This document shows, piece after piece, positions 30,500 through 52,907 of a DNA stretch of 60,897 bases. Below the pieces are notes generated by a model. The model saw only the letters and a program-made list of their open reading frames with translations, was not told the origin of the DNA and did not search any database. A program made the translations under genes and the position numbers. Within the stretch, counting starts at the first letter, position 1, and every line of letters starts with the position of its first letter. The DNA comes from an uncultured Gammaproteobacteria bacterium (GTDB lineage: Bacteria; Patescibacteriota; Patescibacteriia; UBA9570; CAZNEH01): NCBI GenBank assembly GCA_964572175.1, contig CAZNEH010000003.1, positions 7,488 to 68,384 of the forward strand, read 5' to 3'.

Positions 30500-30515
30500 A
30501 TAAGATTTTATTTGT

Positions 30516-30542: not shown

Positions 30543-31570
30543 AGCAATTTTTTCAATTTTTCCGCTTGTAACTTCCAAGTGAATTCGTTAGCGACGCGGT
30601 TTTTGCCTTGTTCACCAAGGCGGTCAGCTAAGTCTTGGTTGTATAAAAGTTGAATGATGGCTTTGGCGATCATGTGAGGGTCTTCGGGGTCAACTAGGAA
30701 GCCGGTTTTGCCGTCGACAACAGCATCAGGGACGCCGCCAGAGTTACCAGCAATGACAGGTTTGCCGAAAGAATTAGCTTCGAGAAATACTAAGCCGAAA
30801 CCTTCGACGTCTTGGTCTGGTAAGGCGCGGGAAGGCATGATGAAAAGATTACAGCCAGCGTACAAGCGAGCGATTTCTTCTTCTGGAACGCGGCCCATGA
30901 ACTCGACGTTTTTTTCTAACTTATGTTTTTTTACAAAATCTTCAAGTGTGTCGCGGTAAGGACCGTCGCCAGCAATAAGATATTGGGCTTTAGGAAATTT
31001 TTTGATTACGGCAGGCATGGCGCGCAAGACCATGTCGTGGCCCTTGCGTTTTACAAGGCGACCCACAGAAAGGATTGTTGGTTGTTCAGGGCTAGAGGGT
31101 AGATCAGGGTACTTGGCTGGAGTGAGGTTGGGGCCAGGAGGAATAATGGAAATTTTATATTGATTACGGCCAGTTAAAAGTTTTTGTAATTCCCGTTTAG
31201 TGTAATTAGAAACAGTAGTGACTCGTTCACTAGCGTTTAATATTTTGGTCATGAGCCATTTTTTGCGAGGATATTTTAAAGGATAAGTAATATCCATGGC
31301 ATGAGTCATGGTAATGTATTTAATCGGCAGGACTTTACTAAGGAGCCAAACTACGGTGCCTAAAGGTAAAACTTGGCCGACTAAAACTAGTTCTATTTTT
31401 TCTTTCTTTATGGTTTTAGTTATAGTTAAAAAAGATCTGAGCCAGTGTTTTTTAATAACCAGAACAGATATCTTAGTGGACGGTAAATTTTGGACCATGT
31501 TAGCGTAGTAGTTGGCTACGCCTCCTACTTGAGGTGGGTATTCTAAAGTGACTAGCAATGTTTTTCTCAT
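30536..31570 (-). CDS. glycosyltransferase family 4
   Basis: 344 aa with EGFGLVFLEANSFGKPVIAGNSGGVPDAV. Confidence 0.85.
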   Translation of the reverse strand: MRKTLLVTLEYPPQVGGVANYYANMVQNLPSTKISVLVIKKHWLRSFLTITKTIKKEKIELVLVGQVLPLGTVVWLLSKVLPIKYITMTHAMDITYPLKYPRKKWLMTKILNASERVTTVSNYTKRELQKLLTGRNQYKISIIPPGPNLTPAKYPDLPSSPEQPTILSVGRLVKRKGHDMVLRAMPAVIKKFPKAQYLIAGDGPYRDTLEDFVKKHKLEKNVEFMGRVPEEEIARLYAGCNLFIMPSRALPDQDVEGFGLVFLEANSFGKPVIAGNSGGVPDAVVDGKTGFLVDPEDPHMIAKAIIQLLYNQDLADRLGEQGKNRVANEFTWKLQAEKLKKLLI

Positions 31571-31571
31571 A

Positions 31572-33035
31572 TTAAGCCTTTCCTCTTTTTAATAATGCTT
31601 TTAAATCACTGGTTGAGACAGCAGTTGTTAATAAAATTAAAGCTAGGTAACTGAATCCAGCTAAGACGATCAGGATTATTAAATGTAAAGAGTCTCGAAG
31701 TAAATAAGTTACTACGCCCATGCCTAAAGCAGAGATTAGAACTAAAATGAATTTTTTTAGCAAGAAGAGCTTACTAAATTTAGTGATTTTATAAACCCAA
31801 GGAAGACCAAGGCCAACTAAGACAATACTAGAAGCAAGGGCTGCGGCGCTGGCGCCTAAGTAAGTGTATTTTGGAATTAAGATAAAATTTAAAACAACAT
31901 TAACCATTAAGGCAATGCCCATGTTTAAAGTATTTAAAGTTTGGCGGTTGCAGGCATTTAATAGATTGCCAATTGGATAGTTGAAGAACAAGAAGAATAA
32001 GCTAAGCATTAATATTTGCAAGGCTTGAATAGAAGCTTCAAAGGCAGGTCCCCAAACAGTTAGAATGATTTTATCAGCTAAGACTAAGGTACCAACAACG
32101 ATTGGCAAGCTAAGAATCAACATGTAAAAGGATCCGTTTTCGAAAAGTTTTTTAACTTTAGATATTTCGTGTTTAAACCAATAACTTACTTCTGGGAAAT
32201 AAGAGGTAGCAAATGATCCAGGTAAAACAGTTAAGGCAAAAGTAAGTTTAAAAGCCAAAGCATACCAACCAACATAACGATCACCAGCTAAAAGTTTTAA
32301 CATTACGCTATCTACAGAACCGTTTAATTTATAAAAAATTCCAGCAATAGCAAAAGGCGCGGAAAGTTTTAACATTTTCCAGAAAAATCCACCAGATATT
32401 TTGAAACGAAATTTTAGGTCTGTTTTTTTGAATATTAAAGTAGAAGCATAAATAATATTAAAGGAGCTGCCGATAATTAAGGCTCCAATAATGTATTCTA
32501 AAGGCATATTTAGCCATAAAGCTAAAATACCAGTTCCGACTACTAAGGATTGGTAGATTATTACACTTAAGGCCTCGAACTTCATCTGCTTTAGAGCTCG
32601 GAACACAGAAAAGAATGTATAAGTTAAAGTGTCGAGTAAAATAACTACCCCGCCTAAGTAAACTAGTTGAACGTCATAGGTAGTGATATTTTGATAGCCA
32701 AGCCAGTTAAATAAATTAATAGTTATAGCCATTCCTAAAAGAGAAACAACTATTAAGATTGTTTTTATGCTTAAAGTGTTTTGGAAAAAAGTTTGTAGCT
32801 TTTCTTTGTCTTTACTTCCCTCTCTAGTAAGGATTGGGCCAAGGCCGAAATCCATAAAAATGATAAAGATAGAAGTAAAAGTGAGAACAAAAGTATATTT
32901 ACCCAGATTTTCTGGGCCGAGACAAGCAGCAAGATAGGAGTAATAACCAAAAGAAATGATCTTTTGGATTAAAGATGCTAAAGTAAGATAAGTAGTATTT
33001 TTAGTAAGACTAGATTGTTTTAACGTTTTGACCAT
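31572..33035 (-). CDS. polysaccharide/oligosaccharide flippase (MOP/Wzx-like)
   Basis: 487 aa, about 12-14 TM, typical Wzx/polysaccharide-biosynthesis-protein layout. Confidence 0.75.
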   Translation of the reverse strand: MVKTLKQSSLTKNTTYLTLASLIQKIISFGYYSYLAACLGPENLGKYTFVLTFTSIFIIFMDFGLGPILTREGSKDKEKLQTFFQNTLSIKTILIVVSLLGMAITINLFNWLGYQNITTYDVQLVYLGGVVILLDTLTYTFFSVFRALKQMKFEALSVIIYQSLVVGTGILALWLNMPLEYIIGALIIGSSFNIIYASTLIFKKTDLKFRFKISGGFFWKMLKLSAPFAIAGIFYKLNGSVDSVMLKLLAGDRYVGWYALAFKLTFALTVLPGSFATSYFPEVSYWFKHEISKVKKLFENGSFYMLILSLPIVVGTLVLADKIILTVWGPAFEASIQALQILMLSLFFLFFNYPIGNLLNACNRQTLNTLNMGIALMVNVVLNFILIPKYTYLGASAAALASSIVLVGLGLPWVYKITKFSKLFLLKKFILVLISALGMGVVTYLLRDSLHLIILIVLAGFSYLALILLTTAVSTSDLKALLKRGKA

Positions 33036-33448
33036 TGTGGTGCACGTCGGGCTTTTTTCAAACCTGGTTTCTTTCGTTCTTTGATTCGTGCATCACGGGT
33101 TAATAGCCCAGCTTTTTTAAGAGGAGGTCTTAGAGTTTCGTCCACAAGCAATAATACTCTGGCAATTCCATGAGCAGATGCTTCAGCTTGGCCTTTGCTT
33201 CCTCCGCCAACGACTTTAATAGAAATGTCGCCAGCTAGTTGGTGATTAGATTTGTCTAAAGGAGAGAAAACAATTCGTTGTAACTCTTTAGTTGGGAAAT
33301 ATTCGGTATAATCTTTTTCGTTAACAATGATTTTACCTTCTCCTTTTTTAATATAACGAACTCTGGCAGAGGCAGATTTTCTGCGTCCAACAGCGTAATG
33401 ATAATTTTTTCTAGTAGTAGCCATATTTATGTGGACAAGCCGAGGCAT
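33020..33448 (-). CDS. rpsI: 30S ribosomal protein S9
   Basis: YAVGRRKSASARV...GGGSKGQAEA...LTRDARIKERKKPGLKKARRAPQWSKR. The true start may be MATTRK at 33424. Confidence 0.95.
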   Translation of the reverse strand: MPRLVHINMATTRKNYHYAVGRRKSASARVRYIKKGEGKIIVNEKDYTEYFPTKELQRIVFSPLDKSNHQLAGDISIKVVGGGSKGQAEASAHGIARVLLLVDETLRPPLKKAGLLTRDARIKERKKPGLKKARRAPQWSKR

Positions 33449-33452
33449 GTCC

Positions 33453-33791
33453 TTACTTAATTGTTAATCTTTTCATCATTCCGCTTCTAAGCTTGTTTTT
33501 TGGAAGCATTCCATAAACAGCTTTTTCTAAACGCTTTGCAGGAGTAAGCTCTCTAGCAGTTTTCTTTTTAAGACCACTTGGGTAACCAGAATAACTAGTG
33601 TATTCTTTTTGTTCCATTTTTTTACCACTAAGAGTAGCCTTGGCGACGTTTTCTACAGTTACTTTAGGGCCTTTATCTTGGTGATAAACAAAATCAGGAT
33701 TGTCTTTACCACGAAGTTTAACAGATACTTCAGAAGCTAAGCGTCCTAAAGCTTTGCCGGTAGCGTCGATTGTAATTTCTTTATTTTCCAT
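33453..33791 (-). CDS. rplM: 50S ribosomal protein L13 (short form)
   Basis: 112 aa with IDATGKALGRLASEVSVKLRGK and MLPKNKL. Shorter than the E. coli L13 sequence I aligned it against from memory. Confidence 0.9.
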   Translation of the reverse strand: MENKEITIDATGKALGRLASEVSVKLRGKDNPDFVYHQDKGPKVTVENVAKATLSGKKMEQKEYTSYSGYPSGLKKKTARELTPAKRLEKAVYGMLPKNKLRSGMMKRLTIK

Positions 33792-33792
33792 A

Positions 33793-34143
33793 TTATACTA
33801 ATTCAATTTGAGCGATATCTGCTCCGTCTCCTTGGCGAGATCCTAGCTTGATGATTCTAGTGTATCCACCTTCGCGTTCTTTGTAGTTAGGGGCAATATC
33901 TTTAATTAATTTATCAACGGCTTTTTTGTCGTTTAAACGAGCTAAAAGATAACGGCGAGTAGCTAAATCGTCTTTGCGAGCTCTAGAGATTAAACGTTCG
34001 ATCATTGGTTGAACCGCTTTAGCCTTGGCTTGAGTGGTTTTCATCTTTTTATGTAAAAAGAAATTAACCATTAATCCTCTAAATAATGCTTTACGAGGAC
34101 CTCTAGCTCGGTCTAAAGTTTTTTTCTTTTTTTGGTGTCTCAT
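33793..34143 (-). CDS. rplQ: 50S ribosomal protein L17
   Basis: 116 aa with MRHQKKKKTLDRARGPRKAL...TTQAKAKAVQPMIERLI. Confidence 0.95.
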   Translation of the reverse strand: MRHQKKKKTLDRARGPRKALFRGLMVNFFLHKKMKTTQAKAKAVQPMIERLISRARKDDLATRRYLLARLNDKKAVDKLIKDIAPNYKEREGGYTRIIKLGSRQGDGADIAQIELV

Positions 34144-34145
34144 AA

Positions 34146-34904
34146 TTATTCTTCCTCTTCTTTAGTTTCTTCTTTAACTTCTTCTGCTTCTTCTTTTAGG
34201 TCTTCAGGTGTTCCGCTGAAGTCGGTGTTATTTAGTAAGTCAAAATGGTCAACTAAAATTTTAGCACTGTCTTTAAAAGCTTCTTCTGGAGATAAAGTTC
34301 CATCAGTAACAATGTCTAAAGTAAGCTTGTCGTAGTTAGTTTGTTTACCAACACGAACATGTTCAGATTTAAAGTTAACGTTTTTAACCGGGGTATAAAT
34401 AGCGTCGATAGAAATATAACCAACGTCTAATTTTTCCTTTTCTCTGTTTTCTACAGGAACATAACCCATTCCTTTATTAACCATTACGCTCATTTCAAAT
34501 TCAGTGCTTTTATCAGTGATAGTGGCTAAGTGTAATTTTGGGTTAGTTACTTCTACTTCGCTGTTTTTGTCGAAGTCACCAGCGGTTACTTTTTTGTCGC
34601 CTTTAACTTTTAAGGTTAATTCTTGAGGTTCGTCTGAGTGCATTTTTAAAGTAACTTGTTTTAAGTTCAAGATAATTTCTACGATATCTTCTTTAATATT
34701 TTCTAAGCTAGAAAATTCGTGGTCAACGCCTTTAATTTTCACCGCAGTAATAGCTCCACCTGGTAAAGATGATAGCAATACTCTTCGTAAGGCATTCCCT
34801 AAAGTAGTACCGTAACCTGGGTAACATGGGCTAACGATGATCTCAGAATGATTTTTCTCAATCTCGTTAGTGGTAATTTGATTAGGTAAAGTGATGTTTT
34901 CCAT
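34146..34904 (-). CDS. rpoA: RNA polymerase alpha subunit, N-terminal domain only with an acidic tail
   Basis: 252 aa with GYGTTLGNALRRVLLSS and the rest of the alpha NTD. It ends ...FDLLNNTDFSGTPEDLKEEAEEVKEETKEEEE, with no helix-hairpin-helix CTD. Confidence 0.9.
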   Translation of the reverse strand: MENITLPNQITTNEIEKNHSEIIVSPCYPGYGTTLGNALRRVLLSSLPGGAITAVKIKGVDHEFSSLENIKEDIVEIILNLKQVTLKMHSDEPQELTLKVKGDKKVTAGDFDKNSEVEVTNPKLHLATITDKSTEFEMSVMVNKGMGYVPVENREKEKLDVGYISIDAIYTPVKNVNFKSEHVRVGKQTNYDKLTLDIVTDGTLSPEEAFKDSAKILVDHFDLLNNTDFSGTPEDLKEEAEEVKEETKEEEE

Positions 34905-34915
34905 ATGTTTTTTAT

Positions 34916-35545
34916 TTATCTTGAATAGAATTCAATGATTAAGTTTAAGGCAAATGGAGGTTGAATGATCTCGGTAGTTGGCCGAGCAGTAGCCTCGCAA
35001 GTTAATGTTTTCTTATCAACTTTTAGCCAAGATGGAATTTCTTTTTTTTCAATAGTTTTTAAAGTGTTAGCAAACTCTGGGCCAGCTAAGCTTTTTTCTC
35101 TAACTGTAATTTTTTCTCCAGGAACAATTTGGTAAGAAGGAATGTTTACTTTTTTACCATTTATTAAGAAATGACCATGAGAAACTAATTGACGAGCTTT
35201 AGCTCTAGATGTAGCTAAGCCAGCTCGGTAAATTACGTTGTCGAATCTCATTTCTAAGAATTGTAAAAGAGTTTCCGCAGTGTTATCAGATTTTTGAGTT
35301 GCTTTTTCGTAATAATTTCTAAATTGTTTTTCTAATAAGCCATAAGACTTTTTAGCTTTTTGCTTTTCTTTTAACTGAATTCCGTATTCAGTTAGTCTAG
35401 GATATCCTTTTTGAGCGTGTTGCCCAGGAGGAAAGTTACGTTTAACCATTGCGCACTTTGCAGAATCACAACGTTCGCCTTTAAGCATTAGTTTTTCACC
35501 AGCTCGACGACATAGTTTACATTTAGGTCCAATATATTTTGCCAT
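34916..35545 (-). CDS. rpsD: 30S ribosomal protein S4
   Basis: 209 aa with MAKYIGPKCKLCRRAGEKL and an S4 domain. Confidence 0.95.
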   Translation of the reverse strand: MAKYIGPKCKLCRRAGEKLMLKGERCDSAKCAMVKRNFPPGQHAQKGYPRLTEYGIQLKEKQKAKKSYGLLEKQFRNYYEKATQKSDNTAETLLQFLEMRFDNVIYRAGLATSRAKARQLVSHGHFLINGKKVNIPSYQIVPGEKITVREKSLAGPEFANTLKTIEKKEIPSWLKVDKKTLTCEATARPTTEIIQPPFALNLIIEFYSR

Positions 35546-35548
35546 ATT

Positions 35549-35950
35549 TTATACTCTTCTAGGTTTTTTAGGTCGACAACCATTATGAGGAATAGGAGTC
35601 ATGTCTTTGATTGAAGTGATATTAAAACCAGCGGCGTTTAATGCGCGTAAGGCGCCGTCACGTCCGCTGCCAATTCCTTTGATGAAAACATTGATGTCTT
35701 TTAAGCCCATATCTTTTACTTTGTCTGCAGCATGTTTAGCAATTACACCAGCTGCGTATGGGGTTGCTTTTTTTGGTCCTTTAAATCCGCATTGTCCAGC
35801 TGAAGAAGTAGCTAAAGGATTACCATTTTGGTCTGTAAAGGTAAGAATGGTGTTGTTGTAGGTTGCTTTAATATAAGCATTACCACGAGTGATTTGCTTC
35901 TTGGCTTTCTTTTTTGGTTTAGCGATTGTTTTATTGGGTTTTTCTGTCAT
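35549..35950 (-). CDS. rpsK: 30S ribosomal protein S11
   Basis: 133 aa ending in PIPHNGCRPKKPRRV. Confidence 0.95.
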   Translation of the reverse strand: MTEKPNKTIAKPKKKAKKQITRGNAYIKATYNNTILTFTDQNGNPLATSSAGQCGFKGPKKATPYAAGVIAKHAADKVKDMGLKDINVFIKGIGSGRDGALRALNAAGFNITSIKDMTPIPHNGCRPKKPRRV

Positions 35951-35962
35951 ATATTATTTATA

Positions 35963-36355
35963 TTAAGTCTTTTGAGCGGCGGCTTTACGACCAGAGCCAA
36001 CAGTTTTACGGGTATTACCTCGGATAGTACGAGTATTGGTCTTAGTTCTTTGACCACGAGCAGGAAGGCCTTTAGCATGGCGAGAGCCACGGTAAGAACC
36101 AGTTTCTTTAAGCCGTTTAATATTAGATAAAACTTCACGTTTTAATTCACCTTCGATACGATGACCTTTTTCGATGTGGTTTCTAAGAGTGTTAACTTGT
36201 TCAGAAGTTAAGTCTTTAGTTCTGGTATTAGGGTCAATTTTAGTCTCCTTTAAAACTTTTTTTGAAGTAGTTAAGCCAATACCATAAATGTAGGTTAATG
36301 CTACTTCAATTCTTTTTTCGTTTGGGAGGGTTACTCCTGATATTCTTGCTGCCAT
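35963..36355 (-). CDS. rpsM: 30S ribosomal protein S13
   Basis: 130 aa with [27 protein letters not shown]. Confidence 0.95.
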
Positions 36356-36360
36356 AATTT

Positions 36361-36474
36361 TTATCCTTGACGTTGTTTATGTTTAGGGTTTTTACAAATT
36401 ACGTAAACTCGACCTTTGCGACGGATTACTTTGCAATCCTTACAAATTTTTTTTACTGATGTTCGTACTTTCAT
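36361..36474 (-). CDS. rpmJ: 50S ribosomal protein L36 (below track cutoff)
   Basis: Own translation: [37 protein letters not shown] (37 aa). It lies in the canonical slot between infA and rpsM. Confidence 0.9.
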
Positions 36475-36526
36475 AAATAAATATATATCCTTTTATCTTC
36501 CCTCGTCGGGAGACTCGGGGTATTAG

Positions 36527-36745
36527 TTAGTTTCTATAGGTTATGCGGCCCTTTGTTAAATCGTAAGGTGACATTTCTACGGTTACTTTGTCTCCGGTTA
36601 AGATGCGGATTTTGTACATACGCATTTTACCAGATAAATGGGCGGTGATAATGTGACCGTTTTCTAATTTAATTTTAAACGTAGTATTAGGAAGTAAATC
36701 CTCTACTACTCCGGTCATTTCGATGAAATCTTTTTTTGCTGACAT
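36527..36745 (-). CDS. infA: translation initiation factor IF-1
   Basis: 72 aa with an S1-like fold sequence ([24 protein letters not shown]...). Confidence 0.95.
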
Positions 36746-36824
36746 TAAAATATTATCTGACCCAGTTAAAGGCCAGAATTTCTCCTTAATTAGCTTATTT
36801 TTTCAAGGACTAGTCTAAATCTTG

Positions 36825-36872
36825 TTGACATCAGTTATGCGATTATTATAACAGGATTTATATTTATGTCAA
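36825..36872. promoter_or_regulatory. face-to-face overlapping promoter pair sharing one -10 region
   Basis: Minus strand: TTGACA (36867-36872), 16 nt, TATAAT (36845-36850), driving infA-rpmJ-rpsM and downstream genes. Plus strand: TTGACA (36825-36830), 16 nt, TATAAC (36847-36852), pointing at cassette 4. Confidence 0.45.
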
Positions 36873-36918
36873 ATGTTTTAGGGTATAAATGTGGAAAACC
36901 CCTAAAATTAGGTAAATA

Positions 36919-36945
36919 TTGACAATAAAGGATAATTGTTATAAA
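36919..36945 (+). promoter_or_regulatory. promoter of GC-rich cassette 4
   Basis: TTGACA (36919-36924). The -10 is TATAAA (36940-36945) at only 15 nt, so the -10 register is uncertain. Confidence 0.45.
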
Positions 36946-36987
36946 AATAAAGGGCCTATATACATGCGCAGTGCGCGGGAGGGTGTG

Positions 36988-37236
36988 ATGACTGTCAGCG
37001 GAAAAAAGCCTAGCCCCAAGGACCTGATGGTGGCGATTCTGGTGATTCTGACCATGGTCCTGGTGGTCGGCATCCACAATCTGGGGAAGCAGCTCGAAGA
37101 GGCTCAGCAGGGCCTGGAGACGGCTCGAGCGAAGCACGCGGCCTGCGAGATGGAGGTGATGATGATCAGTGATATGCTCACTGACACCGAAGTCGCCTGG
37201 GCAGACTACACCGAAGAAGTGGTCTATGGTGAGTAG
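36988..37236 (+). CDS. GC-rich cassette: 82-aa single-pass membrane protein with a helical acidic tail
   Basis: Start chosen at ATG 36988 (MTVSGKKPSPKDLMVAILVILTMVLVVGI...), 4 nt after GGGAGGG. An in-frame ATG at 36964 is the alternative. The rest of the longer track ORF (from 36919) overlaps the promoter. Confidence 0.6.
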   Translation: MTVSGKKPSPKDLMVAILVILTMVLVVGIHNLGKQLEEAQQGLETARAKHAACEMEVMMISDMLTDTEVAWADYTEEVVYGE

Positions 37237-37256
37237 CCTCTGTTCGTGGGGGCAGA

Positions 37257-37303
37257 CCCTGTTTAGCGAGTTCCTTTGGGAGTTTGCGAGGCAGGGCTTT
37301 TTT
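37257..37303 (+). terminator. terminator of cassette 4
   Basis: CCCTGTTTAGC...GCGAGGCAGGG stem (10 of 11 positions pair, including two G-U) followed by CTTTTTT. Confidence 0.5.
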
Positions 37304-37311
37304 ATTCCTTA

Positions 37312-39066
37312 TTATTCTAAGATGGCTTTAATTCTACGAACGCCTTGAGAAGAAGACTGTTCTTTTTTTATTTTGAAGTGGCCGAGTTGGCTGGTTGATT
37401 CTACATGAGGACCGCCGCAGACTTCTTTAGAAAAGTCTCCGACAGTGTAAACTTTTACTTTTTCAGCGTATTTGTCTCCGAAAAAGGCTAAAGCGCCTTC
37501 GGTTTTAGCTTCTTCTAAGCTTTTTTCTTCACAGTTTATAGCAAGATCTTTTTTAATTTGTTGGTTGACTAAGTCTTCGACTTGTTGTTTTTGGTCGTCA
37601 GTAAGCTTGTCTGGGTGGGTAAAGTCGAATCTTAAACGTTCAGCATTAATATTAGAACCTTTTTGTTCAACATGATCACCCAAGACTTGGCGTAAGGCTT
37701 GGTGTAGTAAATGAGTAGTAGTATGGTATTTTTTGCTCATTTGCGAGTCGTCGCCCAGACCGCCTTTGAATTTGCCAGCAGAGGCAGTTCGAGATTTGTC
37801 TTGATGTTCTTTTAATTTAGCTTCAAAGCCTTCAACATCTACTTTAATCCCCTTTTTCTTAGCTTCTTCAACAGTCATTTCTATTGGAAAGCCATAGCTT
37901 TGATATAAATCAAAAGCAGTTTGAGCAGAGATTTTTTCTGGGCGAACAGAGATAGATTGTTCGAGTTTACTTAGTCCTTTGTTTAAAGTGTTGCGGAATT
38001 TTTTTTCTTCTTTTTTAAGTTCTAGTAAAATAGCGTCTTTGTTTTTGTCTAGCTCAGAGTATTCTATAGAATATTCGTTGATTACTACCTCAGCGATTTG
38101 TTTAGTAAAATTTTCTTCTATTTTTAGAGTGTGGCCATGGCGAATAGCGCGACGGATAAGGCGGCGCAAAATATAACCTTGGTCTACATTGGAAGGAGTG
38201 ATGCCTTCGGCTAATAAGAAAGTAGCGGCTCTTAAGTGATCAGCAATAATTCTAAAAGATTTTTCTTCTTTTTGGTCAGTTAAATTTTTAATGGCTTCGA
38301 TGATGTGTTCGAATTGATCAGTATCAAAGACATTTGATTTTTTTTGTAAAATAGCGGCCACGCGTTCAAGGCCCATGCCAGTGTCGACGTTTTTATTTTT
38401 TAAAGGAATAAATTGGCCATCTTTGGTTTTTTCGAATTCCATGAAGACATTGTTCCAGATTTCAGAGTATTTACCGCAATCACAAGAAGGGTCACAGTCT
38501 GGGCCGCAAGGTTCTTTGCCGGTGTCGTAGAAAATTTCTGTGTCTGGGCCGCAGGGTCCGGTAGCGCCAACAGGTCCCCACCAGTTTTCTTCTTTGCCAA
38601 ATTTATAAAGGTGTTTTTCGGAAACTCCTTGTTTGCGCCAAAGTTTTTTAGTTTCTTCGTCTTCTTCGTAATAAGTAATGTGGATTTTTTTAGGGTCGAT
38701 GTTGAGCCACTTGTCTGAGGTTAAGAATTCCCAAGACCATTTAATGGATTGCTCTTTAAAGTAATCGCCTAAAGACCAGTTGCCAAGCATTTGGAAAAAA
38801 GTTAAGTGCCAGTTGTCACCTACTTCGTCGATATCGTTGGTGCGAATACAAAGTTGGCAATTAGCTAAGCGTTTTCCACTGGGATGGGACTCACCCATTA
38901 AGTATGGGATTAGGGGTTGCATTCCAGCAGTGATGAATAAGGCAGTAGGATCGTTTTCTGGAAGTAAAGAAGCGCTAGGAATGATAGCGTGTTTTTTTTC
39001 TTTAAAAAATTCTAAGTACTTGGCTTTAAGTTGTCTTGCGGTCATAGGTTTTAATAATACCTCCAC
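37312..39066 (-). CDS. alaS: alanine--tRNA ligase, short form without a C-Ala domain
   Basis: 584 aa with a catalytic core (FITAGMQP, WNNVFMEF) and an editing-domain metal ligands (HTTTHLLHQA, CGGPHV). It ends right after the editing domain. Confidence 0.9.
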   Translation of the reverse strand: MEVLLKPMTARQLKAKYLEFFKEKKHAIIPSASLLPENDPTALFITAGMQPLIPYLMGESHPSGKRLANCQLCIRTNDIDEVGDNWHLTFFQMLGNWSLGDYFKEQSIKWSWEFLTSDKWLNIDPKKIHITYYEEDEETKKLWRKQGVSEKHLYKFGKEENWWGPVGATGPCGPDTEIFYDTGKEPCGPDCDPSCDCGKYSEIWNNVFMEFEKTKDGQFIPLKNKNVDTGMGLERVAAILQKKSNVFDTDQFEHIIEAIKNLTDQKEEKSFRIIADHLRAATFLLAEGITPSNVDQGYILRRLIRRAIRHGHTLKIEENFTKQIAEVVINEYSIEYSELDKNKDAILLELKKEEKKFRNTLNKGLSKLEQSISVRPEKISAQTAFDLYQSYGFPIEMTVEEAKKKGIKVDVEGFEAKLKEHQDKSRTASAGKFKGGLGDDSQMSKKYHTTTHLLHQALRQVLGDHVEQKGSNINAERLRFDFTHPDKLTDDQKQQVEDLVNQQIKKDLAINCEEKSLEEAKTEGALAFFGDKYAEKVKVYTVGDFSKEVCGGPHVESTSQLGHFKIKKEQSSSQGVRRIKAILE

Positions 39067-40066
39067 CCAGGAGTTGTTTACCTTTGTAAAAAACAGCAGA
39101 TTGGCCTGGAGTTGGGGCGGTAACTGGTTTTAATAATGTAACTTTGTTTTTGTCTAAAATACAAGGGGTATCGGGATAGTGATACCGGATTTGTACTTTA
39201 CATTTTACTGGAAATTTAAGGTTTTGTCTATTGATCCAGTTAGTCTCGGTTAAGGTTAGCTCATCTTGTAATAAGTCTTTTTTATTATTACTTACTAATA
39301 ATATATTTTTTTTAAAGTCTTGCTTAACCACAAACCATGGCCCTGATCCGCCAATAGGAGTTCGTTGGCCAATAGTATATAAAGGAACTCCTTCATGCTC
39401 CCCTATTTTTTCTTTACTATTTATATCAATAATATCTCCTGATTTAACAGAGAGGTGTTTTTTTAAGAAGTTATTATATTGTTTGTCTGGAATAAAACAA
39501 ATATCTTGAGATTCGCTTTTAGTAGTAACAGGTAGCTTTAATTTTTTAGCTATTTTTCTGACTTGGGGCTTAGTGTAATCTCCTAAAGGAAAGATTAAAT
39601 TTTCTAGTTGGGATTCTTTCAGGTTGTATAAGAAATAGCTTTGGTCTTTGGTTTTGTCCTTGGCTTTGTATAATTTATTGTTTTTGAGCTTGATATAATG
39701 GCCAGTAGCTAAATATTCGGCGCCTAAAGATTTTGCTTTTTTTAATAAGGTGTCGAATTTGATGAATTTATTACATTGAACGCAAGGGTTTGGGGTCAGC
39801 CCTTTCTTGTAGTCGCTAATAAAACGATCGACAACGTGTTCTTTAAAAGGTTGGTCGAAGTTTACGGTGTATAAGGGAAAATCTAAGAACTGGGCGATTT
39901 TGCGGGCGTCTTGCTGGGATTCTAGGGAGCAGCAACGATTAGAGTCGCTCCAAAAGTGCATAAAAAGACCGATTACTTTGTAACCTTGTTTTTGTAATAA
40001 GGCCGCGCTGACGGAAGAGTCTATTCCTCCGCTCATAGCGACAGCTACGGTTTTTTGTTTAGGCAT
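39026..40066 (-). CDS. mnmA: tRNA-specific 2-thiouridylase MnmA
   Basis: 346 aa with a PP-loop (VAMSGGIDSS) and the conserved cysteine context (NPCVQCN). Confidence 0.95.
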   Translation of the reverse strand: MPKQKTVAVAMSGGIDSSVSAALLQKQGYKVIGLFMHFWSDSNRCCSLESQQDARKIAQFLDFPLYTVNFDQPFKEHVVDRFISDYKKGLTPNPCVQCNKFIKFDTLLKKAKSLGAEYLATGHYIKLKNNKLYKAKDKTKDQSYFLYNLKESQLENLIFPLGDYTKPQVRKIAKKLKLPVTTKSESQDICFIPDKQYNNFLKKHLSVKSGDIIDINSKEKIGEHEGVPLYTIGQRTPIGGSGPWFVVKQDFKKNILLVSNNKKDLLQDELTLTETNWINRQNLKFPVKCKVQIRYHYPDTPCILDKNKVTLLKPVTAPTPGQSAVFYKGKQLLGGGIIKTYDRKTT

Positions 40067-40072
40067 AGATAT

Positions 40073-40081
40073 ATTATAGCA
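40073..40081 (-). promoter_or_regulatory. extended -10 promoter, leaderless, for mnmA-alaS
   Basis: Minus strand TGCTATAAT. The ATG at 40066 is 6 nt after the -10. There is no -35 match because the position falls in the cassette terminator. Confidence 0.5.
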
Positions 40082-40117
40082 AAAAAATCACCCGCCGTCG
40101 CATAAAGCTATGGCGGG
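40081..40117 (-). terminator. terminator of cassette 5a
   Basis: Minus strand CCCGCC...GGCGGG hairpin followed by TGATTTTTTT. Confidence 0.6.
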
Positions 40118-40128
40118 CAAGCCCGCGG

Positions 40129-40401
40129 TCACTCGAGAGTGACGCACGGGATGGATTTGGGCCGGAGGATGTTGGTCCAGACCTGGCCGGAGCCCTGCTG
40201 GAAGTGGACGATGATGTTGGCGGCCATGGTGGTGGCATCGATGGCCCTGATCTGGGTGCGGTTGAGGTCGAGTTGGGCCAGGACCAGGTCGATGATTTCG
40301 GCGTCGGTGAGGCTGTTGCGGTCCTGGACGACCAGATAGGCTCGGGAGATGTGAGTGGCACTGTAGGAAATGAGAAGAGCGGTGTTGTGAGTTGCGGACA
40401 T
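40129..40401 (-). CDS. GC-rich cassette: 90-aa protein, unknown function
   Basis: MSATHNTALLISYSATHISRAYLVVQDRNSLTDAEIIDLVLAQLDL... AAAGGAGG lies 5 nt before ATG 40401. This frame is chosen over the two overlapping minus-strand ORFs because of the SD. Confidence 0.6.
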   Translation of the reverse strand: MSATHNTALLISYSATHISRAYLVVQDRNSLTDAEIIDLVLAQLDLNRTQIRAIDATTMAANIIVHFQQGSGQVWTNILRPKSIPCVTLE

Positions 40402-40422
40402 GGAGACCTCCTTTGTGGACCA

Positions 40423-40473
40423 ACCTTAGTAAGGAGGGTATAGGTTGTCAAATGATTTTAACTAAGGTAAGGT
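40423..40473. promoter_or_regulatory. back-to-back divergent promoters sharing the -35 (TTGTCAA)
   Basis: Minus strand: TTGACA (40446-40451), 17 nt, TAAGGT (40423-40428). Plus strand: TTGTCA (40445-40450), 17 nt, TAAGGT (40468-40473). Confidence 0.55.
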
Positions 40474-40502
40474 AAATATGAACAAATGATGAGGAGGGTC
40501 TC

Positions 40503-40706
40503 ATGGCCAAGAGAAAAGTTATCGTACAAAAAGATCGCCACTGCCATACTAGCGGTTGTGAGTGGGTCGACTACGAGGACTGCGGCATGAGGTGTCAGCA
40601 GAGTCGCCTGGCCAGGGATTACTTCAATCGTGATCGAGGAATGGAGGGTTGCCGGGCTACTGGCGGTGGTCACATCCGGCTTCCGTCAGGCGCGGCCAAG
40701 TATTGA
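40503..40706 (+). CDS. GC-rich cassette: 67-aa Cys/His-rich basic protein (possible zinc-binding)
   Basis: MAKRKVIVQKDRHCHTSGCEWVDYEDCGMRCQQSRLARDYF... GAGGAGG lies 5 nt before the ATG. It is followed by a terminator. Confidence 0.6.
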   Translation: MAKRKVIVQKDRHCHTSGCEWVDYEDCGMRCQQSRLARDYFNRDRGMEGCRATGGGHIRLPSGAAKY

Positions 40707-40721
40707 GAGGGCTGACGTGTT

Positions 40722-40758
40722 CGAAGGGGTTCCCCAAGGGGCACCCCGTATTTTTTTT
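40722..40758 (+). terminator. terminator of cassette 5b
   Basis: GGGGT...ACCCC GC hairpin followed by GTATTTTTTTT. Confidence 0.55.
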
Positions 40759-40763
40759 ATTTA

Positions 40764-40896
40764 AAAAAGACCCACCGGTGTTCCGAACTGGTCGGAACTG
40801 GGTGGGCGGACCTGTAGGTCACTCGATGGGTCGTACCCAGTAGAGCTGGGTGTGGACTTCTACCGTGGGGTGTCTCCGTGGGCGGTTTGTGATTCT
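40764..40896 (-). ncRNA. candidate ~130-nt small RNA (cassette 5c), no ORF; the 5' end is estimated
   Basis: It has its own promoter (40903-40932) and a strong terminator (minus strand CCCACCCAGTTCCGACCAGTTCGGAACACCGGTGGG plus T6). There is no ATG/SD-led ORF. It contains CGGAGACACC, the same 10-mer that precedes the ATG of cassette 2. Confidence 0.45.
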
Positions 40897-40902
40897 AAGC
40901 CA

Positions 40903-40932
40903 ACCTTAGCAAATAGAGGCATGGTTTGTCAA
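40903..40932 (-). promoter_or_regulatory. promoter of cassette 5c
   Basis: Minus strand TTGACA (40927-40932), 18 nt, TAAGGT (40903-40908). It abuts a plus-strand extended -10 (TGTTATAAT, 40933-41) for 41007-41318. Confidence 0.55.
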
Positions 40933-41006
40933 TGTTATAATTTTAGGATATAATAAGATAGAAAATAGTTTAGGACTTCCCTAATTAAAAATTAAAGTCT
41001 ATAACT

Positions 41007-41318
41007 ATGACTAAAAAACAGCAAAAAACTAAAAAGGTAACCACTGATCAAAAAGTTGATCAGGTCTTGGGAATTGTTAAAAAATCAGCTAAAAGACAAG
41101 AAGAATTAGCGGAAAATCAAGAATTAATTTTAAAGACAATGAATGAATTCTCCTCTAGAATAGAGGAAAAGATAGATAATATTGATATTAAAGTAGATAA
41201 AGTAGAAGATTCTTTAAAGAAAGGAATGAAAGGAATGGAAAATAGAATGGTTAATAAAGACTACTTAGATAGAAAGTTTGCCGCAGCTGGAATTAAAACA
41301 TCAACAATTCCGGTTTAA
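41007..41318 (+). CDS. small Lys/Glu-rich coiled-coil protein
   Basis: 103 aa with IEEKIDNIDIKVDKVEDSLKK repeats. It loosely resembles 19868-20218. Confidence 0.55.
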   Translation: MTKKQQKTKKVTTDQKVDQVLGIVKKSAKRQEELAENQELILKTMNEFSSRIEEKIDNIDIKVDKVEDSLKKGMKGMENRMVNKDYLDRKFAAAGIKTSTIPV

Positions 41319-42015
41319 AGATAAATAAGAAACCTAAAATTATCATAAGTACTCCACCGATAAGACCGGTGTAGTAAGAAATTTTTTCGTTTAAGTGAAC
41401 CATCTTCATAGCAGAAACAGCGATAATAAAAACAATGAAGTCGTCTAGCATAAAGAAGAAGATGTATCCAAGAATATATAAGTAATATTGCCAGGTAGGA
41501 ATTTCAGCCACAGTTAAAGCAGCTGTATAGATAGCTGGAAAACCAGCAGAGCATAACAATTCGATTAAGTTAACGCTAAAAGCTAAAAAGATAACTCCCA
41601 ATACAGAGGCGGGTAAAGTTCGCGGATTAGCGAACTCTTTTATTTTTTCAATAGTTTTAAAGCGAGATTTAGTGCCAGTGACTTTGCATTGGCCTTTGTA
41701 CTTGATGGCATCACGAGTATTGTAAATTCCAAATCCAATAGCTAGAGCCCCAATGATCCAGCGAGCAACTTCAATATAGCTTAAGAATAAAAAGGCATTG
41801 AGCCAAGCGGCCATGAATAAATAATAAACAATTCCAGAAACAATAATAAAAGTTCCGCCGATCCACCAGATTTTTTTGCGATCTTTAGTATTAAGTAAAA
41901 GAGTTAGTAAAAAAACCAAGACCCACATGGCGCAAGGATTAAAGCCATCGAGGATTCCTAAAACAACAGTTAAGGCTGGTAAGGATAAATTAAGATTTAG
42001 TAGTTGATCGACCAT
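41293..42015 (-). CDS. CcdA/DsbD-like thiol-disulfide transfer membrane protein
   Basis: 240 aa, about 6 TM, with LDGFNPCAMWVL in TM1. It is coupled to the upstream thioredoxin-fold gene. Confidence 0.5.
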   Translation of the reverse strand: MVDQLLNLNLSLPALTVVLGILDGFNPCAMWVLVFLLTLLLNTKDRKKIWWIGGTFIIVSGIVYYLFMAAWLNAFLFLSYIEVARWIIGALAIGFGIYNTRDAIKYKGQCKVTGTKSRFKTIEKIKEFANPRTLPASVLGVIFLAFSVNLIELLCSAGFPAIYTAALTVAEIPTWQYYLYILGYIFFFMLDDFIVFIIAVSAMKMVHLNEKISYYTGLIGGVLMIILGFLFIFKPELLMF

Positions 42016-42490
42016 TAAATAAGAAAATAATTACTAAAAATGTAGCAATGATTGCGACAGCTACTAAAATATACATTGCTTTTTGTTGCTGCGGGTCGGT
42101 ATATTCATGAGCGGCTATTTTTTCACTTGGTGATTCGCATTCGCTAACAGAACATATTTCTATTTGAGATTCTATTTCATTAATAGTAGAGCTAGCGCTT
42201 CCAGACAAGGCTTTGTCGTTGATTAAAACTACGGGAACGCCGTTGATATTTTTTTCGTAGATATCTGAAAGCTGAAGAAAGATTTTATTCCCCTCTTCTT
42301 CAGTGACATTGTATTCAGTGATATCGAGTTGAGGATATGTTTCTTTAAAGGTGTTTAACTCAGCTTCTACCTCGTGGCAATGCGGACAAGTAGGGCTATA
42401 GAAAAATAATAGCTCTACAGGATTTTCTTGAGCAAAAACAGGAAACGCAAAAAACGTTAATAATAAAACAAGTAAATATTTTTTAAACAT
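41990..42490 (-). CDS. secreted thioredoxin-fold thiol:disulfide oxidoreductase
   Basis: 166 aa with a signal peptide, a CPHC active site (FYSPTCPHCHEV) and a C-terminal TM. Confidence 0.7.
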   Translation of the reverse strand: MFKKYLLVLLLTFFAFPVFAQENPVELLFFYSPTCPHCHEVEAELNTFKETYPQLDITEYNVTEEEGNKIFLQLSDIYEKNINGVPVVLINDKALSGSASSTINEIESQIEICSVSECESPSEKIAAHEYTDPQQQKAMYILVAVAIIATFLVIIFLFNGRSTTKS

Positions 42491-42499
42491 GATATAAAA

Positions 42500-43162
42500 T
42501 TACTTTAACATCCCTTCTCCTAAAGGGTTGTATCCTGATTCGATTTCATCCCCATCATTGTATCCGTCACCGTCAGTGTCTTTTTTTAAGGGGTCAGTAC
42601 CATAAGTGGCCTCTTCTTCGTCTGTAAGGCCGTCACCGTCTGAATCTACAGCAACTGGAGTAGTATTAGTATTTTCGTTTGTGTTTGTGTTGGTGTTAGT
42701 GACTGTAGTATTAACGACATTAGTATTAGTAGTAGGAGTGGTTTCAGGAGTTTGGTTTAAGTAAAAATATAACCAAATTCCACCAGCAGCTAAAGCAGCG
42801 ATAACAATAATAGCCACAATAATTAAAATAGTTTTTTGCATCATAGAAAGACCTTCTCGACCAAATAGTTCAGCTTCGTCTTCAGTAGAAAGAGCGGCTT
42901 GCTCAGCAGTTGGAGGAGCAGCTTGAGGAGGGGTCATTTTTGGAGCTGGCTGAGGAGGGGTTAGCGGGGCAACTTGAGGTCTGGGAGCAGGGGTCGGAGC
43001 TGGAGCGGCTGGCTGCGGAGTAGGTGCTTTGGGAACGGGTCGAGGTTGAGGTTGTTGGGCAGGAAGATTTGGAGGAGTTGGCCCGCCTAGACTTGGCGAG
43101 GCTGGCCCGGCTGGAGTTTTAGGTTGAGGGGTTTGTTGAGGTTGTTGTACGTCGTCGAACAT
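42500..43162 (-). CDS. single-pass membrane protein: Pro-rich N-terminus, Thr/Asn-rich linker, thrombospondin-type-3-like Asp repeats
   Basis: 220 aa with PQQTPQPKTPAGP..., a TM (IILIIVAIIVIAALAAGGIWLYFY), NTNTNTNENTNT and DSDGDGLTDEEE...DTDGDGYNDGDE. Confidence 0.55.
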   Translation of the reverse strand: MFDDVQQPQQTPQPKTPAGPASPSLGGPTPPNLPAQQPQPRPVPKAPTPQPAAPAPTPAPRPQVAPLTPPQPAPKMTPPQAAPPTAEQAALSTEDEAELFGREGLSMMQKTILIIVAIIVIAALAAGGIWLYFYLNQTPETTPTTNTNVVNTTVTNTNTNTNENTNTTPVAVDSDGDGLTDEEEATYGTDPLKKDTDGDGYNDGDEIESGYNPLGEGMLK

Positions 43163-43223
43163 ATACTAGTTTTTAGTTTGTTAGTATTTAGTTGTTAGTA
43201 TTATACCATAATATAAAAAACTA

Positions 43224-43232
43224 TGCTATAAT
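43224..43232 (+). promoter_or_regulatory. extended -10 promoter, leaderless, for the histidine kinase
   Basis: TGCTATAAT. The ATG at 43241 is 8 nt after the -10. Confidence 0.5.
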
Positions 43233-43240
43233 ATATTTAT

Positions 43241-44872
43241 ATGTGGAAAATATTTAAAGATTTAAAGCTTAAGTATAAGCTATTTATTATTTTAGCGGTT
43301 TTACTTTATTTAGCCGTTAGTTCTTGGATTTTTAGTTTTTCAACTTTAAAAGACATTGATGATAGTTATTCTAGGTTAGAAAGTTACTCTTTGCCTAGTT
43401 TATTGGTTACCTCAGACTTAAAAGATAGTTTAAGTTTGTCTTTTGCTCAAGCGGCAGATTATGTGACTACTGGAAATCAAGAGTTTAAAACTCAGTTTAC
43501 AGAGAATTTTAAACAAGCTGTGGCTGCGGAGATTGATTTATTTGAGTTAGCCCAAACTGATGCGGATTTTGAGTTTACCCAGTTATTTGAAGAAGAGATT
43601 AATGAGATTAATCAAGGCTTAACTGGAATTATTGATAAATACGAAAAAGACCCAGAAAATTTTGCGGCTCAACAAGAATTAGCTAATTTAGGAGAGTTGC
43701 GAGATGATTTTGATATGTTTTTGGAAGAACAAGTGACTGTAAAAGCTCAGGCCCAGATTAATGAAGCTTCTAGTAAGATTGATAGCACTGTGAGCAGAGT
43801 TATTATTTATACTTGGTTTGTGGTAGCGGGAGTATTAATTATTACGGTAATTATTTTGTTTTTAATTCGACACAATATTACTAAGCCTGTAGAGATTTTA
43901 ACCGTGGCGGCCAAGAAAATGGGTAAAGGTAAATTTGAGCCCACTGGTTTAAAGCGTAATGATGAACTTGGTTTATTTGCGCAAACTTTTGATAAAATGG
44001 GAGTAGACATTACTAAAGCACGGGAAGACCTAGAAGCAGAATTAGTAAAAACTAAAGAACTTGATAAACAAAAAAGTGAGTTTTTATCTATTGCCGCCCA
44101 TCAATTAAGAACTCCAATGGCCGGAGTTAAATGGGTTATGGACATGTTGGTTGAGGGTGATATGGGGCCATTAACTGAAGAGCAAAAACATCATTTAAAA
44201 AATGGCGTAGATAATAGCACTAGAATGATCAAGTTGATTAATGACTTACTTGATGTGACTAAAATAGAAGCGCAAAAGTTTCAATATCAAATTGCTAAAG
44301 TAAACTTGGTAGAAGTAATTGATGAAGTTTTAGCAGAGTTCTCCGCCAATATAGAAAAGAAAAAGTTAAAAGTTGATCTACAAGTAGAAAAAGTAGTAGA
44401 GATAAATGTAGATCGTAAGAAGATTAATATTGCTTTATCTAATTTAATTGATAACGCGATTAAATATTCTCCAGAAGGAAAGACTATTACGGTTAGATTA
44501 GTTAAAGAAAAAGATGGTTTATTAATTACAGTGGCTGATCAAGGTTATGGGATTCCTGAAAAGCAACAAAATCAAGTATTTGATAAATTTTTTAGAGGAG
44601 CGAATATTTTAAAGATTGAAACAGACTACTCTACCATTGGAACTGGCTTAGGACTTCATTTAACTAAGGATATTATTGAAAAACATGAAGGTAAGATTTG
44701 GTTTGAGTCTGCAGAAAACAAAGGTACTAAATTCTTTATTAAACTTCCTTTAAATTTAAAAGTAGTAAAACAAGTTAAGACTAAAAAAGATATTCAAAGT
44801 CAGAAACAAAAAGTTTTAACTCCAGAAGAAATTGAAGAACTTAAGAAGAAGATACAAGATAAACAAAAATAA
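43241..44872 (+). CDS. sensor histidine kinase (periplasmic sensor-TM-HAMP-HisKA-HATPase)
   Basis: 543 aa with an H-box (SIAAHQLRTPM), an N-box (LIDNAIKYS) and G-boxes (DQGYGIP, GTGLGLHL). No response regulator is adjacent. Confidence 0.9.
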   Translation: MWKIFKDLKLKYKLFIILAVLLYLAVSSWIFSFSTLKDIDDSYSRLESYSLPSLLVTSDLKDSLSLSFAQAADYVTTGNQEFKTQFTENFKQAVAAEIDLFELAQTDADFEFTQLFEEEINEINQGLTGIIDKYEKDPENFAAQQELANLGELRDDFDMFLEEQVTVKAQAQINEASSKIDSTVSRVIIYTWFVVAGVLIITVIILFLIRHNITKPVEILTVAAKKMGKGKFEPTGLKRNDELGLFAQTFDKMGVDITKAREDLEAELVKTKELDKQKSEFLSIAAHQLRTPMAGVKWVMDMLVEGDMGPLTEEQKHHLKNGVDNSTRMIKLINDLLDVTKIEAQKFQYQIAKVNLVEVIDEVLAEFSANIEKKKLKVDLQVEKVVEINVDRKKINIALSNLIDNAIKYSPEGKTITVRLVKEKDGLLITVADQGYGIPEKQQNQVFDKFFRGANILKIETDYSTIGTGLGLHLTKDIIEKHEGKIWFESAENKGTKFFIKLPLNLKVVKQVKTKKDIQSQKQKVLTPEEIEELKKKIQDKQK

Positions 44873-44886
44873 ATAAATTTAAAACA

Positions 44887-44917
44887 GTCCCCCGGCTAAA
44901 GCCGAGGGACATTTTTT
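44887..44917 (+). terminator. terminator after the histidine kinase
   Basis: GTCCCCCGGC-TAAA-GCCGAGGGAC followed by ATTTTTT. Confidence 0.65.
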
Positions 44918-44960
44918 ATACTCAAGTTTAATGTCCTGCCCCTTTAGGGGTAGGACTGAC

Positions 44961-51884: not shown

Positions 51885-51893
51885 TATAAAGAT

Positions 51894-52901: not shown

Positions 52902-52907
52902 GGTTTT

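Follow-up and report, generated by a model that had tools for sequence, protein, structure and literature searches.

A GC-rich patch with two small divergent genes beside mnmA, a possible laterally acquired orphan-gene islet in a Patescibacteria genome

Organization of the GC-rich patch

We analyzed a GC-rich patch of about 860 bp (positions 40075-40935) in a 60,897-nt stretch of contig CAZNEH010000003.1 from a Patescibacteria (Parcubacteria-like) genome; this whole stretch is called the window. The patch contains two small divergent genes, termed 5a and 5b, and a predicted non-coding transcription unit, 5c. It is bordered by the promoter of mnmA on the left and by the promoter of a native coiled-coil gene on the right. 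While the whole window has a GC content of about 35%, windowed GC content is 0.50-0.58 within the patch, compared to 0.29-0.38 on either side. The GC content at third codon positions (GC3) is 0.22-0.34 in the neighboring native genes and 0.84 in 5a. Composition and codon usage of the patch differ from those of the host, as is characteristic of a lateral islet. The mnmA promoter, which forms the left edge, is of the native, leaderless type, and its pattern of TGnTATAAT followed by ATG is also found ahead of many other native genes. The features of the patch and its borders are as follows.

40073-40081, minus strand: mnmA promoter with an extended -10, TGCTATAAT; the ATG of mnmA (40066) follows after 6 nt (direct reading)
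40081-40120, minus strand: 5a terminator, hairpin 40088-40120 with a 9-bp GC stem, followed by U7 at 40081-40087 (folding)
40129-40401, minus strand: 5a coding sequence, 90 amino acids (aa), 9.9 kDa, isoelectric point (pI) 6.2
40407-40413, minus strand: 5a Shine-Dalgarno (SD) sequence AAGGAGG, 5 nt before the ATG
40451-40423, minus strand: promoter P5a, -35 TTGACA (40451-40446), 17-nt spacer, -10 TAAGGT (40428-40423) (direct reading and regular expression)
40420-40460: back-to-back promoter block, copy 1, with the P5a -10, the common -35 and the beginning of the P5b spacer
40445-40473, plus strand: promoter P5b, -35 TTGTCA (40445-40450), 17-nt spacer, -10 TAAGGT (40468-40473) (direct reading and regular expression)
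40491-40498, plus strand: 5b SD sequence GAGGAGGG, GGAGG core 5 nt before the ATG
40503-40706, plus strand: 5b coding sequence, 67 aa, 7.7 kDa, pI 9.2, 5 Cys, 3 His
40726-40758, plus strand: 5b terminator, hairpin 40726-40747 and T8 at 40751-40758 (folding)
40763-40807, minus strand: 5c terminator, two-tier hairpin 40770-40807 and U6 at 40763-40768, -22.3 kcal/mol, z-score -3.4
40763-40896, minus strand: 5c, predicted non-coding transcript of about 134 nt
40900-40945: back-to-back promoter block, copy 2, with P5c and the coiled-coil gene promoter
40932-40903, minus strand: promoter P5c, -35 TTGACA (40932-40927), 18-nt spacer, -10 TAAGGT (40908-40903) (direct reading and regular expression)
40926-40954, plus strand: promoter of the coiled-coil gene, -35 at 40926-40931, -10 TATAAT at 40949-40954
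41007-41318: coiled-coil gene, 103 aa, native

An initial annotation made from the sequence had divided the patch into three units with defined coordinates and strands, and this anatomy was borne out by the open reading frames (ORFs), the promoter-like sites and the folded terminators. Each of the three units is flanked by its own promoter-like site and its own terminator consisting of a hairpin and a U-run. Positions 30513-44956 of the window are 100% identical to an independent Logan contig (14,444 bases). This identity over 14.4 kb rules out an assembly chimera or an artificial insert, and the patch is therefore natural and not an artefact.

Coding potential of 5a and 5b

The GC content of 5a at the first, second and third codon positions is 0.55, 0.42 and 0.84, a pattern known from high-GC genes. 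We scored codon usage with a log-odds model that was trained on the other GC-rich genes of the window, using leave-one-out scores for the training genes. The 5a frame reached 0.72 bits per codon, while the other five frames of the region scored between -1.3 and 0.03. This value is level with those of two genes from other GC-rich islets of the window, an M29 aminopeptidase gene (0.75) and a gene for a 222-aa protein (0.71). From its codon signature and its strong SD sequence, 5a is almost certainly a real gene. A public gene call covers 5a in another frame (40074-40451, minus strand), predicting a protein of 125 aa that is rich in Pro, Ser and Thr; GC content by codon position is 0.44/0.75/0.54, and this call is in the wrong frame. 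Consequently, the window's own 5a is missing from the protein collection, because the gene caller picked a different frame.

The evidence for 5b is of a different kind. Although its frame is the best of six, it scores only -0.004 bits per codon, with a GC3 of 0.59. The coding sequence accounts for 204 nt of a predicted transcription unit of about 270 nt. The strongest argument for 5b as a gene comes from its translation signal. The motif GGAGG-N3-9-ATG occurs 12 times in the window; in seven cases the ATG begins an ORF of 60 codons or more, and all seven of these are islet genes, including 5a and 5b. Thus 5b is probably a real gene, judged by this signal. No call was made at 5b by public gene calling.

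The highest 19-residue Kyte-Doolittle mean of 5a is 1.06, so the protein is not hydrophobic. AlphaFold2 run without an alignment gave a beta-hairpin, helices and a second beta-hairpin at a predicted local distance difference test score (pLDDT) of 58.7, and 5a (about 10 kDa) would be soluble with an alpha/beta fold. The 5b protein is hydrophilic, with a grand average of hydropathy of -0.92, a highest 19-residue Kyte-Doolittle mean of -0.14 and 13 Lys and Arg residues. Four of its cysteines are arranged as C14-x4-C19-x7-C27-x3-C31, without paired CxxC or CxxH motifs. The zinc knuckle or ribbon initially proposed for 5b was not borne out, since this spacing is non-canonical, no family matched and AlphaFold2 without an alignment reached a pLDDT of only 41.8. 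As a basic, Cys- and His-rich protein of about 8 kDa, 5b may nevertheless bind metal.

Promoters, terminators and a duplicated promoter block

Promoter and terminator sites were assigned by direct reading, regular-expression statistics and folding. A simple consensus scanner returned the coiled-coil gene promoter as its sole match here and none of the three terminators. The -35 hexamers of P5a and P5b overlap by 5 bp inside TTGTCAA (40445-40451). Overlapping -35 elements in TTGTCAA, with 17 nt to TAAGGT on each strand, had already been described in the initial annotation, and the coordinates agree. The common -35 is partly a by-product of the sequence itself, because TTGACAA reads TTGTCAA on the opposite strand. 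The predicted start sites of 5a and 5b (40416 and 40480) are about 65 bp apart. With two sigma-70-type hexamer pairs at correct spacing, the two promoters are predicted to form a classical back-to-back divergent pair. The arrangement TTGACA-N16-18-TAAGGT was found four times in the window, compared to 0.05 expected from shuffles, and all four sites are located ahead of islet units. The intergenic region between 5a and 5b (101 bp) contains four TAAGG motifs and a CCTTAgTAAGG palindrome.

Bidirectional promoters with a symmetrical common -10 have been described (Warman et al., bioRxiv 10.1101/2020.01.31.928960; PMC12825309). Their -10 elements overlap and their start sites are 10, 18 or 23 bp apart (PMC12825309). 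Like these, the 5a/5b block is a near-palindromic promoter that is read on both strands and at which polymerase binding one way would exclude the other. In contrast to them, it has a common -35, its -10 elements lie apart at 40423-40428 and 40468-40473, and about 65 bp separate the predicted starts. It is thus not a common -10 bidirectional promoter of the Warman/Grainger type.

Local alignment revealed that the block is present twice. The best match to the block at 40420-40460 within the window is 40900-40945, where P5c diverges from the coiled-coil gene promoter. The two copies align with a score of 31, compared to 16 +/- 2.7 for shuffles (maximum 28 in 1000). We conclude that the 5a/5b promoter block appears to be a duplicate of the 5c/coiled-coil gene block 480 bp away. 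We also considered the promoter box as a phage signature. Six exact matches were found in IMG/VR. A rough, uncomputed estimate for 17 specified bases suggests that chance would yield at least as many, and the idea was rejected.

Folding supported the back-to-back terminators of 5b and 5c that had been postulated initially. At its 3' end, 5b is predicted to stop at about 40758 and 5c at about 40763, which leaves a gap of about 5 nt and no overlap between them. On the other side of the patch, the U-run of the 5a terminator abuts the -10 of mnmA.

The 5c unit

Inside the 5c transcript, no start codon opens an ORF of 20 codons or more, and no frame showed a coding signal. The 5c leader resembles those of the cassettes (CACAAACC...GGAG) but lacks a start codon. 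The leaders of 5a and of two paralogous islet genes, p233 and p237, have TAAGGT, CACAA, AAGGAGG and ATG in common, in this order. In 5c, TAAGGT is followed by ATCACAAACCGCCCACGGAGACACCCCACGG, a leader of the same kind with a weakened SD sequence and no ATG. We tested whether 5c is an internally deleted copy of 5a, but the bodies aligned no better than shuffles or unrelated GC-rich genes, and only the promoter block is common to both.

The 5c transcript folds beyond shuffles (z-score -2.9), mostly due to its terminator. The fold z-scores of the 5b and 5a transcripts, -1.4 and -1.6, are unremarkable and give no structured-RNA signal. A search against Rfam returned nothing at the gathering score; the sole match over 5c was ASdes (E 0.73), far under the gathering score. 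The best Rfam E-value of the region, 0.058, belongs to an animal miRNA model at 40028-40111, outside 5c. No tRNA and no tmRNA were found in the region. When 5c was paired with the start regions of 5a, 5b, the coiled-coil gene and mnmA, the duplex energies stayed within the range of shuffles. Most likely, 5c is a by-product unit made of a promoter copy, a cassette-like leader and a strong terminator, and it is unlikely to serve as a dedicated regulator.

Homology searches

A word-indexed search of 5.8 billion proteins gave zero candidates for 5a and zero for 5b. A phmmer search with 5a against 1.84 billion representatives yielded four matches, all long repeat proteins (SRCR-type and others) with scores summed over their repeats, which we rejected as artefacts. 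Searches of Pfam, NCBIfam, PADLOC and PHROGs gave 5a E-values of 0.027-0.12 at best, all short of the curated cut-offs; 5b had no Pfam match at an E-value of 1 or better and none in NCBIfam, PADLOC or PHROGs. Searching PDB sequences gave no match for either protein, and Foldseek found no match to the 5a model below E=0.1 in PDB or BFVD. In GTDB genomes, JGI metagenomes and IMG/VR, scans confirmed by tblastn revealed no homologue of 5a or 5b. Of four tblastn searches of phages and plasmids, three were empty, and the sole match of the fourth, to a Gordonia phage hypothetical protein (E=0.8), is a chance match. Prompted by a 30-nt DNA match (repeat family D11), we also asked if 5a is related to the paralogues p237 and p233, and rejected this since BLASTP and hhalign gave only a patch of 8 residues. 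The initial annotation could not assign the locus to a known type, and this stands for all sequence, family and structure searches, which found no homologue and no described module. We infer that 5a and 5b are lineage-restricted orphan accessory proteins and not a toxin-antitoxin (TA) pair.

The host itself is isolated as well. Its protein clusters are singletons, no close relative was found in the searched collections, and the nearest mnmA, from a Patescibacteria metagenome-assembled genome (MAG), is 55% identical. The source run (SRR8146440) was not mentioned in any paper found. At the loci of mnmA homologues (at most 55% identity), no GC-rich patch lies beside mnmA; the sole GC excess there is one 300-bp window at one locus (L004), about 4 kb past mnmA. 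In the window, the patch is flanked by mnmA-alaS and native genes. It lies outside any prophage, and the searches returned neither phage nor viral matches.

GC-rich islets and native genes in the window

The patch is not the only region of this kind. The window contains at least five GC-rich islets, which together make up about 11% of 61 kb.

2200-5150: GC-rich islet with two tandem paralogues and an M29 aminopeptidase gene
2230-2865 and 2975-3622, minus strand: likely true coding sequences of the tandem paralogues, each with its own TTGACA-16-TAAGGT promoter and terminator
3783-4970, minus strand: M29 aminopeptidase
22780-23150: GC-rich islet with a single gene at 22815-23027, minus strand, encoding a 70-aa membrane protein with two hydrophobic segments
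36830-37300: GC-rich islet with a single gene at 36988-37236, plus strand, encoding an 82-aa membrane protein
40075-40935: GC-rich islet with 5a, 5b and 5c
52960-54990: GC-rich islet with two plus-strand genes of 222 aa and 308 aa

In all islet genes (9/9), GGAG or GGAGG precedes the ATG by 4-9 nt, and the leader measures 20-90 nt. Their promoters, wherever visible, carry a TTGACA -35, and their terminators are GC-rich hairpins. In contrast, none of the approximately 57 native ORFs in the window has an upstream GGAG. The native genes are AT-rich, and many of them start 6-8 nt after TGnTATAAT (for example at 40066, 43241, 29065, 51894-52901 and 49772). Judged by these signals, they appear to be mostly leaderless and SD-less. 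The patch belongs to a class of foreign cassettes, GC-rich and SD-led, that is found genome-wide, a point absent from the initial annotation. 5a and 5b share the putative foreign signature of the islet genes, namely a -35/-10 promoter, a leader, a GGAGG SD sequence and a GC-rich hairpin terminator. However, the cassettes are chimeric and not simple imports, because their promoters are AT-rich and of host type.

The relatives of the M29 aminopeptidase at 52-57% identity are, where a source is named, from MAGs of Acidobacteriota, Deltaproteobacteria and Pseudomonadota. One of them lies on a contig of 70% GC and has a GC3 of 0.92, equal to the GC3 of the window's copy. For this gene a foreign origin is demonstrable from its relatives and codon usage. 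The best match, at 67% identity, comes from a second organism (Logan SRR22387842, L031 1-1610) and is likewise GC-rich (GC3 0.79) and preceded by a GAGGAG SD sequence. It is located directly after the 3' end of a tRNA gene on a short contig, with flanks lower in GC than the gene itself (0.43-0.47, and 0.31 in the last 120 nt). Since this homologue is both GC-rich and SD-led, the phenomenon of GC-rich cassettes exists in a second organism. Four-fold sites of the two M29 genes are saturated, although both genes are GC-rich.

A similar picture emerges from the islet paralogues p237 and p233. Their proteins are 47% identical, with a ratio of nonsynonymous to synonymous substitution rates (dN/dS) of 0.83 and a GC3 of 0.75-0.81, and promoter and SD sequence are kept in both. 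In both gene pairs, GC-richness seems to outlast simple decay in an AT-rich genome, unless the acquisitions were independent. These tandem paralogues, p237 and p233, have a conserved HRVFPMTTHRGPDxQHRVF motif and gave no family match.

Interpretation of the patch

We interpret the patch as a laterally acquired accessory orphan-gene islet that sits on a duplicated local promoter block, a reading to which we give about an even chance. The islet might have grown by local duplication of the promoter block together with capture of foreign DNA. 5a, and probably 5b, would be translated as small orphan proteins. Because the -35 hexamers have 5 bp in common, the 5a/5b block would be occupied by one RNA polymerase at a time and in a single orientation. 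At bidirectional promoters that share a -10, the two directions are expected to compete only where one of them is strong (PMC12825309), and by analogy initiation of 5a and 5b would compete only if one direction were strongly driven. The three terminators could keep read-through from reaching mnmA and the coiled-coil gene. With orphan-gene islets and phage morons the patch has in common the atypical composition, a promoter and an intrinsic terminator for each gene, proteins without relatives, and insertion between intact housekeeping genes. It differs from phage morons in lying outside a prophage and in having no phage or viral relative among the sequences searched. It further differs from both in that its promoters are of host type, one promoter block is a local duplicate, and the native genes of the host initiate translation in another way.

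Several observations weigh against this interpretation. Neither donor nor homologue was found for 5a or 5b, so that the argument for their foreign origin is drawn from composition and expression signals. The map of transcribed and translated units is a predicted one. 5b lacks a GC3 or codon signal, and its first 12 codons are AT-rich. A TTGACA -35 with a TAAGAT -10 is also found before native greA and before a native gene for a 381-aa protein. Finally, p237 and p233 appear to have stayed GC-rich and SD-led despite an identity of only 47%, which is awkward for recent arrival followed by simple decay.

The combination of two small genes and a small RNA within less than 1 kb resembles type I and type II TA loci, and the initial annotation had accordingly proposed a regulatory or TA-like trio. 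What remains of this proposal is the layout, with three separate units, divergent 5a and 5b, convergent 5b and 5c, and no known module; the functional trio found no support. In such a three-part module, the 5c RNA would act on 5b or 5a, which could be reconciled with the tight packing of the units, the convergence of 5b and 5c, and the folding of 5c beyond shuffles. However, that fold signal is mainly the terminator. Unlike the partners of a type II operon, 5a and 5b are divergent and each has its own promoter and terminator, and neither protein contains a TA domain detectable in Pfam, NCBIfam, PADLOC, PHROGs or PDB sequences. A hydrophobic membrane toxin, as in type I systems, is not encoded by 5a or 5b according to their Kyte-Doolittle profiles. 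Antisense pairing is not apparent either, as the predicted transcripts of 5b and 5c stop short of each other and the duplexes of 5c with the four start regions stay at the level of shuffles. The tandem RNA repeats of type III systems were not found, Tandem Repeats Finder reporting the 5b terminator hairpin only. With no match to TA and defence families in addition, we regard a functional trio as very unlikely.

A regulatory role could also be ascribed to 5b alone. Divergent pairs of a small repressor gene and its target gene, such as tetR/tetA-type layouts, have divergent genes, overlapping promoters and one small basic product, and the patch shares these traits. As a small basic metal-binding repressor-like protein, 5b might bind the TAAGG-rich intergenic block and control P5b and P5a. 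Its pI of 9.2, its 13 Lys and Arg, 5 Cys and 3 His residues, the overlapping -35 hexamers of the divergent promoters, and the four TAAGG motifs with the CCTTAgTAAGG palindrome in the 101-bp intergenic region fit this idea. Yet 5b matches no DNA-binding or zinc-ribbon family and has no recognizable DNA-binding fold, and by its confidence (pLDDT 42) the AlphaFold2 model is unstructured. The TAAGG motifs coincide with the -10 hexamers, and no operator apart from promoter hexamers is evident. Moreover, the copy of the block that drives 5c and the coiled-coil gene has no adjoining 5b-like gene, in contrast to what is seen in tetR/tetA-type pairs. Hence, we consider such a repressor quite unlikely.

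Two further explanations concern the islet genes as a class. The ORFs could be carried-over fragments of a recent, inert import, untranslated in the host and on their way to be lost. Native genes do without SD sequences, and GGAGG may be unreadable in this host, since the anti-SD motif is missing from the 16S rRNA in about half of Parcubacteria (PMC9297842); no 16S rRNA gene lies within the window. That 5a and 5b are both orphans, that 5c already resembles a dead unit and that the organism has been seen just once in public data would agree with an inert import as well. On the other hand, each ORF is placed exactly between a host-type promoter and a terminator, and the frame of 5a is intact with its full codon signature. 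Sister islet genes have diverged far, yet their frames, promoters and SD sites are kept, and the 67% M29 homologue of the second organism is likewise GC-rich and led by GAGGAG within flanks of GC 0.43-0.47. An inert import is rather unlikely in our view. Alternatively, the cassettes including 5a and 5b could have been kept GC-rich and SD-led for expression in, or tuning to, a high-GC bacterial host of the symbiont. The split in SD usage is complete (9/9 islet genes versus none of about 57 native genes), high GC is retained even between widely diverged genes, and the nearest M29 relatives are from bacteria with 70% GC. However, the window contains no transfer machinery, no border repeats and no sign of DNA or RNA export, and independent acquisitions from related donors account for the same facts. 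We consider expression in a partner cell very improbable.

The orphan-gene islet remains our preferred interpretation. Taken by itself, the trio would be one more orphan small-protein pair in a foreign islet, which is common in bacteria and little informative. The wider pattern is of more interest, namely that the cargo genes all use expression signals absent from native genes. 5a and 5b might even belong to a maintained second gene class, GC-rich and equipped with a consensus -35, a leader and a strong SD sequence, within an AT-rich, leaderless and SD-less genome, but this proposal has a very low probability. If the host ribosome lacks the anti-SD tail, the cassettes would be read by a separate initiation route or be built for a high-GC partner cell. 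The pattern offers a clean natural experiment on the ability of such symbionts to translate SD-led messages. It is likewise relevant to the wiring of foreign genes into a leaderless genome and to whether promoter blocks are copied for this purpose. In practical terms, training on the AT-rich host leads gene callers to mis-annotate such genes, which protein databases consequently under-represent.

Additional features of the other islets

The 82-aa protein encoded at 36988-37236 combines a single hydrophobic segment at its N-terminus with a coiled coil and gave a weak match of the ZorB/MotB type (E of about 0.005). Of the two plus-strand genes in the islet at 52960-54990, the 222-aa gene (53076-53744) shows a weak likeness to histidine phosphatase/phosphoglycerate mutase (E 0.03-0.09), and the 308-aa gene (53964-54890) is an orphan and a singleton in the protein collection. 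This islet is inserted among five paralogous genes with a phosphoenolpyruvate (PEP)-utilising-enzyme mobile domain (51894-60797).

Two kinds of repeated elements were observed in the window. A palindromic element, GACCGAGATAAACTCGGTCACAACAGCAC followed by GTGCTGTTGTGATCTAGCTTGTCTAGATC, is present three times (30506-30547, 51818-51889 and 53814-53893). The Logan contig breaks at 30513, inside one of the copies, suggesting that the element is multi-copy in the genome. A terminator and promoter module likewise occurs three times (5068-5145, 23068-23190 and 24348-24428) and consists of a GC hairpin, AAAAAAGCTCCCTCTCCAC...GGAGAGGG...GGGGAGAGGA, followed by TTGACAAAA-CCC-TTTTAT. Its copies are located upstream of the M29 peptidase gene, the gene for the 70-aa membrane protein and the native 381-aa gene.

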